From Actinomycetota bacterium (GTDB lineage: Bacteria > Actinomycetota > AC-67): a stretch of DNA of 64,000 nucleotides. The stretch's first letter is position 1, and every line of letters begins with the position of its first letter. The notes under the pieces were generated by a model. That model was given only the letters and a program-made list of their open reading frames with translations, was not told where the DNA came from and did not search any database. This document shows, in pieces, positions 8,841 through 61,869 of the stretch. The DNA lies in NCBI GenBank assembly GCA_046565595.1, contig JBKHYG010000100.1, positions 20,838-84,837 of the forward strand, read 5' to 3'. Made by a program: the position numbers and the translations under genes.

Positions 8841-8916
8841 GCTCCCATCGTCCAGCGGCCTAGGATTCCGCCCTTTCACGGCGGCGACACGGGTTCGAAT
8901 CCCGTTGGGAGTACCA
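8841..8916 (+). tRNA. tRNA-Glu (anticodon TTC), CCA encoded
   Basis: Acceptor GCTCCCA/TGGGAGT (G1-U72 as in other actinobacterial tRNA-Glu), anticodon stem CCGCC/GGCGG with loop CTTTCAC, T arm ACGGG-TTCGAAT-CCCGT, 3' ACCA. Confidence 0.85.
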
Positions 8917-11747: not shown

Positions 11748-11825
11748 GCCCCTGTGGAGCAGTTTGGAGTGCTCGCCACCCTGTCAAGGTGGAGGCCGCC
11801 GGTTCAAGTCCGGTCAGGGGCGCCA
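11748..11825 (+). tRNA. tRNA-Asp (anticodon GTC), CCA encoded
   Basis: Acceptor GCCCCTG/CAGGGGC perfectly paired, anticodon stem CCACC/GGTGG with loop CTGTCAA, T loop TTCAAGT, discriminator G + CCA. Confidence 0.85.
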
Positions 11826-12596: not shown

Positions 12597-12669
12597 GGCC
12601 AGGTAGCTCAGTTGGCAGAGCACGGGTCTGAAGTACCCGGTGTCGGCGGTTCGATTCCGTCCCTGGCCA
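12597..12669 (+). tRNA. tRNA-Phe (anticodon GAA)
   Basis: Acceptor GGCCAGG/CCTGGCC, D arm GCTC-AGTTGGCA-GAGC, anticodon stem CGGGT/ACCCG loop CTGAAGT, T arm GGCGG-TTCGATT-CCGTC, discriminator A. Confidence 0.9.
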
Positions 12670-17081: not shown

Positions 17082-18503
17082 ATGGCGGAGCGTTCTTTCA
17101 AGGTACCCGATCTGGGTGAGGGACTCACCGAGGCCGAGATCGTCAACTGGCTCGTGAAGGTCGGCGATTCGGTCGAGTTGAACCAGCCCATCGTCGAGGT
17201 CGAGACCGAGAAGGCGATCGTCGAGGTCCCCTCACCGTTCGAAGGCAAGATCAAGGAACTCAAGGGCGAGGTTGGCGAGAAGGTTGAGGTCGGTTCGGTC
17301 TTCGTGATCTTCGAGGTCGAGGATTCTGACGACGACGATTCGCCGACCGAGGCTGGGAGCCGCAAGGAAGTGTTGGTCGGTTACGGACCCGAAGAGGGCG
17401 GCGGCAAGCGACGCAAGCAGCGCAAGATCGGCCGCCGCAAAGGCTCAGGTGACTCCGGTGAGTCGGGCGACTCCTCCGACTCATCCGATGCGGCTGGCTC
17501 GTCGACCACGACCGCGAAGCAGGAGACCAAGGAGGCGCCTGCCCCGGCCAAGAAGCGTGCTCACTCTAGCAACGGATCGGCGAAGGCTCTTGCAACCCCG
17601 CCGGTGCGGAAGATGGCTCGAGAACTCGGCGTTGATATCGACTCGCTGACCGGTTCAGGCCCCGACGGCCGAGTCACCCGTGAGGATGTCGAAGCCGCCG
17701 CGAAGGCGCCCGCGTCTGACGCCGCCTCTGCCCCCGCCGCTGCCTCGGCATCCTCGGCGCCCGCTGGCTCGACGGCTGCTCGCCGCCGGGTGGCCGATGG
17801 GCCCGAGGAGGAGAGGATCCCGGTGCGCGCGATCCGCCGTTCGATCGCCGAGAAGATGGTGCGCGCCAAACACACGATCCCTCATGTCACCGAGTGGCTC
17901 GAGGTGGATGCGACCGAACTCATGGCTGTGCGGGCGCAACTGAAGAGCGCACCCGAGGCGAAGGACATCAAGATCAGTCCGCTCGCGATCATCGCGAAGG
18001 CGTTCACGGCTGCGCTGCGCTCGTATCCGCTGATCAACGCTTCCTGGGATGACGACAGGACCGAGATCGTCATCCATCACCCGGTGCATCTCGGCATCGC
18101 AACCGATACCGATCGAGGCCTGCTGGTACCGGTCATCAAGGATGCCGACCAGCTCTCGATCCTCGAGATCTCGCAGGAGACTTCACGGTTGGCGGAACTG
18201 TCGCGCTCGGGGAAGATCGGGCCTGCGGATCTGACCGGTTCGACCGTCACCATCACGAACATCGGATCGTTCGGGATGCAGTCGGGGACGCCGATCATCA
18301 ACCATCCCGAGGCAGCCATCCTGGCGCCGGGAGCGATCGTCTCCAAGCCCTGGGTGGTCGATGGCAAGATCGAGGTTCGTCAGATCATGACGCTCGCGCT
18401 GGCGTTCGATCACCGCATGATCGACGGAGCGTATGCGGGACGGTTCCTTCGCCACCTGGGCGACCTGATCGAGTCACCTGCGCGACTCCTAGCTGCTCTC
18501 TGA
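17082..18503 (+). CDS. bkdC: Dihydrolipoamide acyltransferase E2 component (lipoyl domain, E3-binding domain, catalytic domain)
   Basis: N-terminal lipoyl domain (VEVETEKAIVEVPSPFEG, lipoyl-Lys), Ala/Pro-rich linkers, PSBD (ATPPVRKMARELGVDIDSLTGSGPDGRVTREDV), C-terminal CAT-like domain with DHRMIDGA catalytic His. Confidence 0.85.
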   Translation: MAERSFKVPDLGEGLTEAEIVNWLVKVGDSVELNQPIVEVETEKAIVEVPSPFEGKIKELKGEVGEKVEVGSVFVIFEVEDSDDDDSPTEAGSRKEVLVGYGPEEGGGKRRKQRKIGRRKGSGDSGESGDSSDSSDAAGSSTTTAKQETKEAPAPAKKRAHSSNGSAKALATPPVRKMARELGVDIDSLTGSGPDGRVTREDVEAAAKAPASDAASAPAAASASSAPAGSTAARRRVADGPEEERIPVRAIRRSIAEKMVRAKHTIPHVTEWLEVDATELMAVRAQLKSAPEAKDIKISPLAIIAKAFTAALRSYPLINASWDDDRTEIVIHHPVHLGIATDTDRGLLVPVIKDADQLSILEISQETSRLAELSRSGKIGPADLTGSTVTITNIGSFGMQSGTPIINHPEAAILAPGAIVSKPWVVDGKIEVRQIMTLALAFDHRMIDGAYAGRFLRHLGDLIESPARLLAAL

Positions 18504-18588
18504 TCGAGCCTGCCCTTTCTCCGGGTCCTCCGACTTCCAGGTCCTGCCAAGGGTTCCTTATGTCCCATCATGCGGCTATAAAGGTGGC

Positions 18589-19539
18589 ATGCCCAAGCAG
18601 GGATGGTTCAGCGAACTCTTCGTCGAGTTCCATCCTCGCCTCGTCTCCTATCTGAAGCGGTTCGTCAACGCAGAGGACGCTGCGGACATCTCGATGCAGG
18701 TGTTCGTCCGCCTGCTCGAGCAACCCGGGTTCGATGATTCGCGGCCCCCTTGGCCATACTTGAGGACCATCGCGCGCAATCTCGCGTACGACCATCTTCG
18801 CCGAGAGAGGGCAACTCCGATGGTAAGGCACGGAGTCTCTGAGGTCGATCCCGGGGGGCTGGTTGCAGACCGCCTCGATCTTCGACGGGCGATGGCGCAC
18901 CTTCCAGAGTCCGAGGCTTCGGTGTTGCGGTCGGTCGCCGACGGCTACAAGCCTGCAGAGATCGCGCGCACACTCGGCCGAACCCCGCATGCGGTTACAT
19001 GCATGCTGTCTCGGACACGCCTGAAGCTGCGTGCGCTGCTCGAGCCGATCACCATCCCGCTGGTCGCTTGGTGGTACCGCCGCCGACCGGGCACGGCTGG
19101 TGGTCCCGTACCTGGGGTCGAGTTCGCCGTGACCGCGCTGGTCGTCGCCGGTGCTGTCGTCATCGCCCCGCTCTTGCCGGGCGTTGACCCTCCGAGTGTT
19201 CGGCTGATCGAAGCCTCAAGTTCGGGTCCTGTGATGCCAGATGCCATGCCTCGACGGATCAACAGCACCTCAGCAGCCAAGAACTCCACCATCGCCGCCG
19301 AACCCGGCGAGCAGCCGGGCCATGATCCGATCGTCATCACTCAGCGTCACGAATTCGAGAAGGACGAGAAGGCGATGATGCCACGACGCATCTGGTTCGA
19401 GTACTGGGTCCGGGACGGCGAAGGCAACAACATCTACGGATCTGAGTTCTGGACCGGATGTGAGACCGGCGAACCTGCAGAGGGATATCCCACGATCGAG
19501 TGGTACGAGATCATCCCCTACTTCGAGTCGACCTGTTAG
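18589..19539 (+). CDS. ECF-type sigma-70 family sigma factor fused to a transmembrane helix and a ~120-aa extracytoplasmic C-terminal domain
   Basis: Region 2 (FVRLLEQPGFDDSRPPWPYLRTIARNLAYDHLRRE) and region 4 HTH (LPESEASVLRSVADGYKPAEIARTLGRTPHAVTCMLSRTRLKLRAL); then TM segment FAVTALVVAGAVVIAPLL and C-terminal domain ending ...GYPTIEWYEIIPYFESTC with no recognizable motif; no separate anti-sigma gene downstream. Confidence 0.7.
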   Translation: MPKQGWFSELFVEFHPRLVSYLKRFVNAEDAADISMQVFVRLLEQPGFDDSRPPWPYLRTIARNLAYDHLRRERATPMVRHGVSEVDPGGLVADRLDLRRAMAHLPESEASVLRSVADGYKPAEIARTLGRTPHAVTCMLSRTRLKLRALLEPITIPLVAWWYRRRPGTAGGPVPGVEFAVTALVVAGAVVIAPLLPGVDPPSVRLIEASSSGPVMPDAMPRRINSTSAAKNSTIAAEPGEQPGHDPIVITQRHEFEKDEKAMMPRRIWFEYWVRDGEGNNIYGSEFWTGCETGEPAEGYPTIEWYEIIPYFESTC

Positions 19540-19907
19540 ATCCAGGGCAGGACGAGGCCCCAGCAAGCCGAGTAGCTGAGTACATACTCGCATTTCCCGA
19601 CCGGCACCGAGCTGGACAACGGGCCGGGGGGAACGGGGCTACAGCGTCCAGCACCACCCCTACCAAGTAGGGGCACATCCCAAGACGCCGAAACGCAGGG
19701 CGGATAGGCCTCTGCTGGCGTGAAGGAGAGCGATGCCAACATCAGGGAGGCGAGCAAGAACCCGGAATTCCGGGGTTCTGTTCGCCGGCCGCGGCGAACA
19801 GCCCGCCTCCCTGAAGAACGCACCTACAGATAGGTACGAACCAGGGGGCGGAACCTCTCACCGGTTGGCAGGAGAAGTTTCCCGGCAGCAACTCTCTCGG
19901 GCTAGAC

Positions 19908-20010
19908 GCCCGAGAACCAGGCGGCCGGCTAAGAGTGGTGTGGCCCCCGAACCAGCGGCGGCTAAGAGTCGTGTGGGCCCCGAACCAGCGGGCGGCTAAG
20001 AGAAGCTGAC
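19908..20010. repeat. Three tandem imperfect ~34-bp direct repeats; the last copy supplies the final codons and stop of purM
   Basis: GCCCGAGAACCAGGCGGCCGGCTAAGAGTGGTGTGG / CCCCCGAACCAGCGGCGGCTAAGAGTCGTGTGG / GCCCCGAACCAGCGGGCGGCTAAGAGAAGCTGAC; core CCCGA(G)AACCAG(G)CGG..GGCTAAGAG. Confidence 0.7.
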
Positions 20011-21021
20011 GCCGGAGCCAGCGGTCACAGAGCCGACCTGGACGGCGGTCTCGCCGTGTGCGTTCGCGAGCGCCAGTGCGTCGTCCACCCGGTCGGACGG
20101 CACGACGAGCATCATCCCGAGCCCTCGGTTGAAGACTCGCCACGCCTCATCCGGTTCGATCTGGCCAAGCCTCTCTAGGTATCCGAAGATGGGTTCCCGC
20201 TTCCAGGCGGACGGATCGACGCTGGCTCCAAGACCTTCGGGCAGGACCCGGGGCAGGTTGCCAGTTATGCCGCCACCGGTGATGTGCGCAGCCGCATGAG
20301 TCAGGCTTTCTCTGGCCAGCGCCAGCACGGCGGGTGAATGGATGCGACATGGGGTCAGCAGTACCTCGCCAAGCGTGCGAGGCTCAGCCTCATCGAAACG
20401 ATCCTCGAGAACGAGATCATGATCGAGGATGAGTTTGCGGACCAGCGAGTAGCCGTTGGCATGCAGGCCGCTTGAGGCGAAGCCGATGATCGCATCACCT
20501 TCGCGCACCCGGTGCGCACCGAGCCGCGAGTCCTCATCCACGACTCCGACGCAGAAGGTTGCCAGGTCGTACTCGTCGATGTCCATGACACCGGGGTGTT
20601 CCGCCGTTTCGCCTCCGAGCAGAGCAGCGCCAGCCTGCCGGCAGCCTTCCGCGACCCCGGACACCAGGTCGGCGATCTTGCTCGGGATGACCTTCCCGAT
20701 GGCGATGTAGTCGAGGACGAACAGCGGCTCGGCGCCCTCGCAGACGACATCGTCTACGACCATCGCGACCGCGTCGATACCGATCGTGTCATGAACATCC
20801 AGCGTCTGGGCGATGAGCGTCTTCGTGCCTACACCGTCGGTACCTGACACCAGGATCGGCTTGCTCAGGTTCGCGAAACGGCCGTCGAACAGGCCCGCGA
20901 AGCCGCCGAGATCGCCTCGCACCTCTGGTCTGGTGGCCGCGCCGATGCGTTCCTTGATGAGTTCGACCGCACGATCTCCAGCCTCGATCGAGACGCCAGC
21001 CTGCTCGTAGGTGGAACTCAT
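19996..21021 (-). CDS. purM: Phosphoribosylformylglycinamidine cyclo-ligase (AIR synthetase)
   Basis: Start at ATG 21021 (MSSTYEQAGVSIEAGD aligns with canonical PurM N-terminus); AIRS N and C domains throughout. Confidence 0.9.
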   Translation of the reverse strand: MSSTYEQAGVSIEAGDRAVELIKERIGAATRPEVRGDLGGFAGLFDGRFANLSKPILVSGTDGVGTKTLIAQTLDVHDTIGIDAVAMVVDDVVCEGAEPLFVLDYIAIGKVIPSKIADLVSGVAEGCRQAGAALLGGETAEHPGVMDIDEYDLATFCVGVVDEDSRLGAHRVREGDAIIGFASSGLHANGYSLVRKLILDHDLVLEDRFDEAEPRTLGEVLLTPCRIHSPAVLALARESLTHAAAHITGGGITGNLPRVLPEGLGASVDPSAWKREPIFGYLERLGQIEPDEAWRVFNRGLGMMLVVPSDRVDDALALANAHGETAVQVGSVTAGSGVSFS

Positions 21022-32661: not shown

Positions 32662-33465
32662 CTAGGCGAACCCGGCGCCCTCAAGCAAGGCGATCGGGTC
32701 GTTGGATTCGACGATCGCCAAAGCATCCAGGCACCAGCGTTTCCACTCGTCTCGGGGGATGAACTCTCGGCAAGCCTGCAACTCGACCTGCCTCGCCGCA
32801 ACCTCAGCCTCGGCATCAGGCCCTTCGGGCGAGCCAGCGAGGTGGTAGCCCTCGTGTAGGAGCGGAGGCAGCATCTCGATGGGTTCGAGGGCGCGGTCTG
32901 CAAACCGGAAGTTCAGCCAGAGGGTGCCGTCTTCCAGGTTGGCGGTGGATTCGATCCCGGTGCGTTCGAACTGTGCGAACCGCACGGTCGCCTTCCCCAA
33001 GCCTTCGATCGCTTGGCGCATGTCCTGGCTCATACCGGGCCCGATCAGCGTGCACGCCTGTTTCAAAGCCTGATACAACCGCGTGAGTCCGTCACCACTC
33101 ATCACCCAGCGGGTACCCGAGAGTTCCTCGCAGGGTGCTTCGGCCTCGGGGACGGTCTCTGGCGGCGGCACGGGCACCACTCGGATCGGATCGTGACTGA
33201 AACCATCAGCTGGCGCGGGACGACGCTCCTGCAGCGGAACGGTTACGAAGTCGCTGGGGCGGATCAGCAGCCAGCCGGTCGCGACGATGGCTACCAGAGC
33301 AAGGGTGGCGAACGAGATCAGCAGGCCCCGCGGCATCGCCTGCCGGATCGGCAGATCGATCGGTTGCTTCGAGCCCGTCGGACGGGTGGTCGCTGCGTCC
33401 GCCGGACGGGTGGCCGCTGCGTCCGTCGGACGGTCGCGCCCCGGGTCAGGTCGGTGGTCGCTCAA
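32662..33465 (-). CDS. Membrane-anchored hypothetical protein with N-terminal 8-aa tandem repeats; start (TTG) overlaps purS stop
   Basis: 267 aa; N-terminal RPTDAAATRPADAATTRP repeats, one TM (LLISFATLALVAIVATGWLLI), extracytoplasmic C-terminal domain; GC3 of N-terminal region about 80% supports coding; TTGA start/stop overlap with purS. Confidence 0.5.
   Translation of the reverse strand: MSDHRPDPGRDRPTDAAATRPADAATTRPTGSKQPIDLPIRQAMPRGLLISFATLALVAIVATGWLLIRPSDFVTVPLQERRPAPADGFSHDPIRVVPVPPPETVPEAEAPCEELSGTRWVMSGDGLTRLYQALKQACTLIGPGMSQDMRQAIEGLGKATVRFAQFERTGIESTANLEDGTLWLNFRFADRALEPIEMLPPLLHEGYHLAGSPEGPDAEAEVAARQVELQACREFIPRDEWKRWCLDALAIVESNDPIALLEGAGFA
33377..33433. repeat. Tandem 24-bp direct repeat (2.4 copies), in frame within 5' end of CDS 32662..33465
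   Basis: GTCGGACGGGTGGTCGCTGCGTCC / GCCGGACGGGTGGCCGCTGCGTCC / GTCGGACGG. Confidence 0.7.
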
Positions 33466-61795: not shown

Positions 61796-61869
61796 GCGGA
61801 TGTAGTTCAATGGCAGAACGAAAGCTTCCCAAGCTTTAGACGGGGGTTCGATTCCCCTCATCCGCTCCA
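61796..61869 (+). tRNA. tRNA-Gly (anticodon CCC), CCA encoded
   Basis: Acceptor GCGGATG/CATCCGC, anticodon stem AAAGC/GCTTT loop TTCCCAA, T arm GGGGG-TTCGATT-CCCCT, discriminator T + CCA. Confidence 0.85.

Follow-up and report, generated by a model that had tools for sequence, protein, structure and literature searches.

The subject of this analysis is the gap between two convergent genes, purM and a gene for an extracytoplasmic function (ECF)-type sigma factor, in a 64,000-nucleotide (nt) stretch of Actinomycetota DNA (GenBank assembly GCA_046565595.1, contig JBKHYG010000100.1; hereafter the window, to whose positions all coordinates refer unless a related locus is named). The two stop codons lie 456 base pairs (bp) apart, as the original prediction had it. 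That prediction found the space consistent with an unannotated structured RNA, saw in it no credible open reading frame (ORF), only low-complexity frames, and noted tandem repeats at the purM end. RNA structure is indeed present and conserved, but it lies within the messenger RNA (mRNA) of a protein-coding gene and is not free-standing. We think it likely that the gap is best read as a missed gene with a conserved cis RNA structure, together with a duplication of the purM end, and not as a non-coding RNA (ncRNA) locus. The genes concerned are:

18589..19539, forward strand: ECF-type sigma gene, 316 amino acids (aa), with sigma2 and sigma4 regions, a transmembrane (TM) segment and an extracytoplasmic tail with two conserved Cys
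19536..19823, reverse strand: unannotated small ORF, 95 codons, GTG start, TAA stop overlapping the sigma TAG
19996..21021, reverse strand: purM (phosphoribosylformylglycinamidine cyclo-ligase), 341 aa from the ATG at 21021, TAG at 19998-19996

The sigma and PurM products are both 100% identical to proteins of an NCBI metagenome-assembled genome (MAG); the 341-aa PurM product, which has AIRS and AIRS_C domains, matches exactly in a Logan contig as well as in the Actinomycetota MAG. Over 471 nt the gap folds beyond dinucleotide shuffles on both strands (z = −5.0 forward, −4.7 reverse), and the two hairpins originally proposed at about 19569-19590 and 19657-19673 are supported by sequence and folding. 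Apart from those of the repeat region, all of the hairpins first noticed lie within or directly 5' of the 95-codon ORF.

Contigs of close relatives were retrieved by a protein search with PurM, and the related loci L006, L007, L008/L009, L010, L017 and L019-L021 were used for comparison; a profile search of genome contigs with PurM listed only matches of at most 48% identity, which were useless for synteny. The space between purM and the convergent 2-oxoacid dehydrogenase E2 gene (18503-19996 in the window) is a variable islet among related Actinomycetota, with the following contents:

L006 (PurM identity 90%): empty
L007 (86%): a 170-bp relic
L008/L009 (86%): sigma gene and a 346-bp spacer
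L010 (71%): sigma gene and a 726-bp spacer
other loci (lower PurM identity): PemK toxin-antitoxin (TA), restriction-modification (RM) genes, kinases, PIN/AbiEi

Elsewhere the islet carries RM genes together with DUF5343, or else a histidine kinase that PIN/RHH, AbiEi or NUDIX genes may accompany. A FitA-like RHH and PIN toxin-antitoxin pair lies between purF and purM in L006 (2693-3327) and L007 (214-836), and not in the window.

The small open reading frame and its sigma partner

The small ORF is under purifying selection at the protein level, and its product is kept in two further lineages; the statement that the gap holds no credible frame does not stand. Between the window (19863..19540, reverse strand) and L008, 324 nt align without gaps at 71% identity, with mismatches distributed 50/26/18 by phase. 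Counted by codon position within the ORF, mismatches number 24/15/47 (chi-square p = 7.5e-5); the ORF frame gives a protein identity of 72% against 45-49% for the other sense frames, and the Nei-Gojobori ratio of non-synonymous to synonymous rates (dN/dS, omega) is 0.24 in frame against 1.15-2.8 in the others. Synonymous divergence of the ORF (dS 0.98) is in line with that of purM (1.1), omega falls to 0.13 for codons 28-95, and two Ser sites have switched between TCN and AGY codons. The antisense frames of the region are interrupted by stops, and the overlap with the sigma gene is confined to 4 nt. At L010 the same product is encoded at the syntenic place and in the same orientation, although the DNA can no longer be aligned: identity is 40-49% over 60 aa, with a composition-corrected E of 1e-6 to 8e-9 and a BLOSUM62 score of 100-124, against 28-31 ± 6 for shuffles (0 of 20,000 as good). 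The frame is intact in the window, L008/L009 and L010, and thus combines what marks a protein-coding gene, namely openness across lineages, a dN/dS below 1 and three-periodic substitution.

The precursor has 95 aa, of which 56 (56-57 across lineages) would form a mature part with four invariant Cys. A signal peptide is predicted in the window product, with an N-region of net charge +7, the h-region FLLASLMLASL and the cleavage motif AEA|Y; all three products have an Arg-rich N-region, a hydrophobic core and A-x-A directly before an invariant Tyr. Their net charges (+7, +7, +11) and peak hydropathies (2.3, 2.1, 4.0) agree with a Sec-type signal peptide for signal peptidase I, and from these sequence features we infer that the product is secreted by that route. 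Invariant in all three are AxA|Y, the four Cys, CSPVPP and G.GG.

Searches with the mini-protein returned no homologue among 5.8 billion clustered proteins, and the single match among 1.84 billion representatives proved a repeat-driven artefact in a 2553-aa surface protein. There was no match in PDB, Pfam, NCBIfam or PADLOC, and none to plasmids by protein or DNA. Scanning metagenomes with the mini-protein alignment brought up no relatives, and the back-translated pattern Y-x-P-C-(17)-C-S-P-V-P-P had 6 metagenome matches, all non-homologous on translation, and 0 in viral contigs. Since neither start variant of the product occurs in a 15-billion-protein collection, the gene has been called by no pipeline. 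The result therefore corrects an annotation gap, a conserved gene for a putatively secreted mini-protein missed by NCBI and Logan and absent from multi-billion-protein collections; what it adds is a new small-protein family with embedded RNA structure, of modest interest.

A shorter alternative frame of 39 codons on the same strand (GTG 19861 to TGA 19742; L008 1505-1624) starts within the GTGAGA motif of the upstream block described below and ends at a TGA just before codon 28, both kept in L008. Of its 5 substitutions 4 are non-synonymous, whereas in the 95-codon frame 4 of 5 are synonymous, so that the shorter frame probably persists as a side effect of conserved nucleotides; the idea of an upstream ORF with reinitiation was rejected.

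The convergent neighbour has the composition of an ECF sigma factor, with region 2 (PF04542, Sigma70_r2, 7e-12) and region 4 (PF08281, r4_2, 7e-7) only, and scores 50.8 bits with TIGR02937 against a cutoff of 42.9; its extracytoplasmic tail is about 115 aa long. Only two proteins matched it at E ≤ 1e-10 in the 5.8-billion set, and orthologues among the loci are confined to L008 (66%) and L010 (30%), each beside the small ORF. The window, L008/L009 and L010 have both genes, and L006, L007, L017 and L019-L021 have neither; the small ORF always converges on the membrane-anchored sigma gene, and the stops overlap in the window and L008. Going by this co-occurrence, one may speculate that the mini-protein is functionally linked to the sigma tail. 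Beside the L010 sigma gene lies a second sigma-like stretch (L010 3307-3843; 31% identity over 193 aa to the window sigma), which may be a tandem paralogue.

Conserved RNA structure on the sense strand

A three-way junction was originally proposed within the gap, and its position is confirmed at about 19742-19814; taken alone it folds with z = −5.8 on the reverse and −6.6 on the forward strand. It occupies early codons of the small ORF, and the start codon is itself part of a hairpin:

19742..19814, reverse strand: three-way junction RNA, codons 4-27 (−56 kcal/mol, z = −5.8)
19814..19801 paired with 19755..19742, reverse strand: junction stem P1
19799..19780, reverse strand: junction hairpin 1, with an invariant CG[CGGC]CG top
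19779..19757, reverse strand: junction hairpin 2
19819..19838, reverse strand: start-codon hairpin, CGUACCUA-UCUG-UAGGUGCG, with the GUG start in the 3' arm
19824..19863, reverse strand: conserved 40-nt block 5' of the small ORF, GTGAGA-N17-CGTACCTA, 80% identical to L008

P1 with its two hairpins is the minimum free energy (MFE) fold of the sense strand in four lineages (z = −5.8 in the window, −5.2 in L008, −3.8 in L010 and −2.9 in L007, where the antisense strand gives 0.0). In nucleotides the junction is 93% identical to L008 and the remainder of the ORF 62%; the corresponding proportions of synonymous differences (pS) are 0.19 and 0.72, and purM has 0.58 (binomial p = 7e-5). Synonymous change is thus suppressed about three-fold in the junction codons, and their bases must be constrained by something beyond the protein. 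In L010, hairpin 1 and the 3' arm of P1 are kept in a different codon phase, which likewise points to selection at the nucleotide level.

Trained on the window, L008 and L007, with L010 left out, a covariance model recovers the L010 element (1709-1760, E = 0.02). The possibility of a dispersed repeat or miniature transposable element (MITE) was rejected, because the same model finds no further copy and the junction is single-copy in the window and in nine related loci. In a structure-guided alignment of four rows, hand-cut from each sequence's own fold, 98.6% of cells in the P1 core and hairpin 1 are paired, compared with 36-58% when the partners are slid, and 6 of the 18 pairs show change on both sides, matched by 1 of 500 shuffles. 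All G-U pairs fall on the purM-sense strand. Recurrence of one architecture in four lineages, compensatory changes and this strand asymmetry, in four sequences with a hand-guided alignment, identify the junction as a real cis RNA structure on the sense strand of the mini-protein mRNA and not as a small RNA (sRNA) gene.

The start-codon hairpin has 8-10 bp (window −11.5 kcal/mol, z = −4.7; L008 10 bp, z = −4.1). Its arms are identical in the window and L008, where three of the four loop bases differ, and it has been lost in L007. The upstream block may be a promoter or leader; its motif GTGAGA-N17/18-CGTA (as part of the block, GTGAGA-N17/18-CGTACCTA) occurs at the syntenic place only in the window, L008/L009 and L007, and no canonical −10 element was identified. 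That it is a sigma-dependent promoter shared by the two genes was rejected, as the motif was not found upstream of the sigma gene.

Searches for other kinds of RNA signal gave little. The original prediction found no match to RNase P, tmRNA or SRP motifs, and a scan of Rfam 15, which also covers 6S RNA, purine and ZTP riboswitches and actinobacterial sRNAs, agrees: at gathering thresholds the whole window yields only five tRNAs. These are all on the forward strand (Lys-TTT at 2560, Glu-TTC at 8841, Asp-GTC at 11748, Phe-GAA at 12597 and Gly-CCC at 61796), three of them within 4 kb (8.8-12.7 kb). A permissive scan of 19400-20150 gave RT-13 as best match (18.5 bits, E = 0.88), all others having E > 2. 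Membership in RT-13 was rejected, the gathering threshold being 69.1 bits and the neighbours being purM, the sigma gene, purF and E2, with no reverse transcriptase gene nearby. A scan for sigma70-like promoters returned no matches. The junction does not have the form of an intrinsic terminator, as no U-run follows P1, the sequences there being UGAUGUUGG, UGAUGUUCA, GUCCUUCC or AUCGUGGUC in the four lineages; the sole terminator-like matches in a terminator scan correspond to the tip of the inner hairpin 2, inside the junction.

Tandem duplication of the purM 3' end

Upstream of the conserved 40-nt block, the purM end is repeated in a tandem array whose units (u0-u3) follow one another in the direction of purM transcription:

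19914..20024, reverse strand: tandem array, about 3.3 units of 33-34 nt
20024..19992, reverse strand: u0, the last 8 purM codons, TAG and 5 nt
19991..19958, reverse strand: u1
19957..19925, reverse strand: u2
from 19924 downward, reverse strand: u3, partial and decayed
19896..19914, reverse strand: hairpin CUCGGGC-GUCUA-GCCCGAG, a perfect 7-bp stem just after the array

The three copies of about 34 bp first reported, the third of them forming the purM end, are correct insofar as a tandem array sits at the purM stop. The copy that Tandem Repeats Finder (TRF) places there (array 19914-20002, period 33, 2.6 copies, 91% matches) holds only the last codon and TAG, however, and it is a fourth, diverged copy, u0, that covers the last 8 codons. 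Aligned to u1 and u2, u0 agrees at about 25 of 33 positions, which none of 2000 shuffles equalled; the unit recurs nowhere else in the window (0 matches in 100 shuffles). Duplication of u1 and u2 is recent, since the two are still 94% identical.

The suggestion of a repeat expansion of the purM 3' end was well founded: the repeated unit shows homology to purM's final 33 nt, and the array, absent from the L008, L007, L010 and L006 loci, is lineage-specific. L008, with the same cassette, has only about 24 nt from the purM stop to the conserved block, and no significant purM-end duplicates were found in other loci. Slippage or unequal crossing-over would have triplicated the last 33 nt of purM, stop included, with the first copy still ending the gene and the downstream copies free to decay. 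With purM still terminated by its first copy, the duplication would do no harm; the array is probably neutral and of little consequence.

The hairpin just after the array, part of the MFE fold, might mark the 3' end of purM; it has no U-tract, and its conservation does not extend to L008. On the forward strand, u2 (19926-19975) contains GAACC-N16-CGT, an ECF-promoter-like spacing present in one of three units only, which would fire antisense into purM. A second clean tandem repeat lies elsewhere in the window, at 33375-33433 (period 24, 2.5 copies, 91% matches, score 104).

Interpretation and comparison with known systems

Several observations weigh against a gene with an embedded cis structure. 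We found no Shine-Dalgarno sequence before the GTG and identified no promoter for the ORF, TANNNT at leaderless distance being absent; the NCBI and Logan gene callers both leave the ORF uncalled; and AlphaFold, run on the single sequence, predicts only a hydrophobic helix and no confident fold (pLDDT 47). Independent lineages are few, three for the ORF and four for the junction, and the covariation, coming from few sequences and a hand-cut alignment, is suggestive. At −56 kcal/mol the junction is too stable for a simple thermometer, and L007, which keeps the upstream block and junction without the ORF body or the sigma gene, fits a purM-linked role, for instance as a terminator or 3' UTR element, at least as well as one in translating the mini-protein. 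The lack of gene-caller predictions, of a Shine-Dalgarno sequence and of homologues in the 5.8-billion and 1.84-billion protein sets, along with the low AlphaFold confidence, would also suit an artefactual ORF, conserved only through overlapping constraints on RNA or DNA, or through antisense effects exerted by the 3' end of the sigma gene, from which ORF no protein is made. We hold this to be very unlikely: codons 28-95, the part least conserved in nucleotides, give the strongest coding signal (omega 0.13, pS 0.72), L010 keeps the four Cys, AxA|Y and CSPVPP despite saturated DNA divergence, the ORF shares only 4 nt with the sigma gene, and the antisense frames contain stops. Strong folding z-scores, a conserved junction and the weak, sub-threshold RT-13 match could in turn be taken to indicate that the gap encodes a free-standing structured ncRNA, either an sRNA or a larger ribozyme-like RNA. 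The coding signal largely refutes this, and we regard it as very unlikely: 288 of the 456 nt are ORF, with a dN/dS of 0.24, three-periodicity and a 40%-identical protein homologue beyond DNA alignability; beyond codon 27 only 62% of nucleotides are identical to L008 and synonymous sites are saturated, the reverse of what is expected of an RNA gene; no Rfam family reaches threshold; and no promoter and terminator pair of its own was found in the gap.

A third possibility, compatible with a mini-protein gene, is that the junction and upstream hairpin belong to purM, as a terminator lacking a U-tract or as 3'-end protection of a purF-purM transcript, with the signal-peptide region merely overlapping. 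The structure does lie on the purM sense strand, and L007 keeps block and junction, with compensatory changes, directly 3' of purM where ORF body and sigma gene are deleted; moreover, because the stops of the convergent genes overlap, there is no room for another terminator between them. Against this, a U-run after P1 is absent in all four sequences, the junction lies at varying distances from the purM stop, between about 60 and 280 nt, in L006, the closest relative, purM abuts the next gene and the element is missing, and the L007 copy is decaying (z = −2.9, hairpin 2 degenerate, start hairpin lost). A purM element is possible, but we consider it unlikely. The repeats, for their part, might be functional, either as protein-binding sites (for instance for the neighbouring sigma factor or RNA polymerase) or as a scar or attachment site from the integration of an element carrying the sigma and mini-protein cassette. 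The purM-E2 spacer is a variable islet with differing cassettes (TA, RM, Abi and kinase genes), GGTTCG occurs in each unit and once in the upstream block, and duplication of a target gene's 3' end is common among integrative elements. Yet the repeats are not conserved, and the same cassette sits at the same site in L008 and L010 without them. They are tandem and do not flank the cassette, whose other border offers no significant second copy of the unit, only a 12/14 inverted match (14 of 500 shuffles as good, two tests). No recombinase was called, with neither integrase nor transposase in the locus and no integrase in the gene calls of the relatives; ECF-like spacing occurs in one of three units only, and the unit is unique in the window. 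The integration-site scar and the protein-binding array of the original prediction are therefore both without support, and we give a functional role for the repeats very little credence.

Returning to the missed gene with its cis structure, the features suggest how it might work. The hairpin would bury the GUG, and the −56 kcal/mol junction would begin about 10 nt downstream, such that start hairpin and junction together may limit or gate translation initiation of the mini-protein. Codons 4-27, which make up the junction, would encode the sequence-tolerant N-region of the signal peptide, and the structure may also protect the 5' end of the mRNA or block read-through from purM. The mini-protein gene and the convergent membrane-anchored sigma gene form a two-gene cassette. 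A bolder version holds that start hairpin and junction are a new class of cis-regulatory RNA, embedded in sequence-tolerant signal-peptide codons of an mRNA that lacks a Shine-Dalgarno sequence and gating synthesis of a secreted four-Cys mini-protein, itself the extracellular partner or ligand of the tethered sigma factor, within a compact mobile two-gene envelope-signalling cassette with 3'-overlapping antisense transcripts; this we consider doubtful, and clearly improbable as it stands. Mini-protein and membrane-bound sigma factor would together make a new candidate for a signalling module, in a lineage of uncultured actinobacteria. Should the junction prove to be regulatory, signal-peptide codons would here double as an RNA element. 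The locus also illustrates that what looks like a GC-rich "structured intergenic region" may in fact code for protein and carry an RNA structure within the coding sequence.

Among known systems, mRNAs in which the start codon or ribosome-binding site is sequestered (translational operators, RNA thermometers, 5' folds of type I toxin mRNAs) resemble this one in having a conserved hairpin that pairs the initiation codon and an extensive 5' structure on the mRNA of a small membrane-targeted protein; the 3' end of the convergent, overlapping sigma mRNA could be an antisense partner here. As differences, the junction lies inside the coding region and, at −56 kcal/mol, is too stable for a thermometer, and Rfam has no family that matches it in sequence or structure. 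Type I toxins, taken as products of less than about 60 aa with a single TM helix and a dedicated antisense sRNA, differ in that the product here has 95 aa and combines a signal peptide that looks cleavable with a Cys- and Pro-rich domain of 56 aa. With RT-13 RNA the junction shares, on the reverse strand, a GGGAGG/CCUCCC outer stem around two hairpins.

Unannotated small ORFs and mRNAs initiated at GUG or AUG without a Shine-Dalgarno sequence are common in Actinobacteria (Shell et al. 2015, PMC4633059). The present ORF is likewise short, missed by annotation and begun by a GUG lacking a Shine-Dalgarno sequence, in a high-GC actinobacterial genome; unlike those, it has its GUG within a hairpin and a very stable junction downstream, an arrangement that would be unusual for an efficiently translated leaderless mRNA, and its product is a putative 95-aa secretory precursor and not a very short peptide. 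ECF sigma factors with fused C-terminal transmembrane or anti-sigma-like extensions are also known from Actinobacteria (ECF48/52/53; PMC8999054). The sigma factor here shares with these fusions the sigma2 and sigma4 regions, one TM segment, an extracytoplasmic tail and the lack of a separate adjoining anti-sigma gene. It resembles them in architecture and differs in that its family is tiny. To our knowledge, pairing with a convergent gene for a secreted mini-protein has not been described for those groups.

The array at the purM end, finally, resembles tandem duplications of gene 3' ends that arise by slippage or unequal crossing-over, with head-to-tail units of which the first is the gene's own end with its stop, decaying copies downstream, and restriction to a single lineage.

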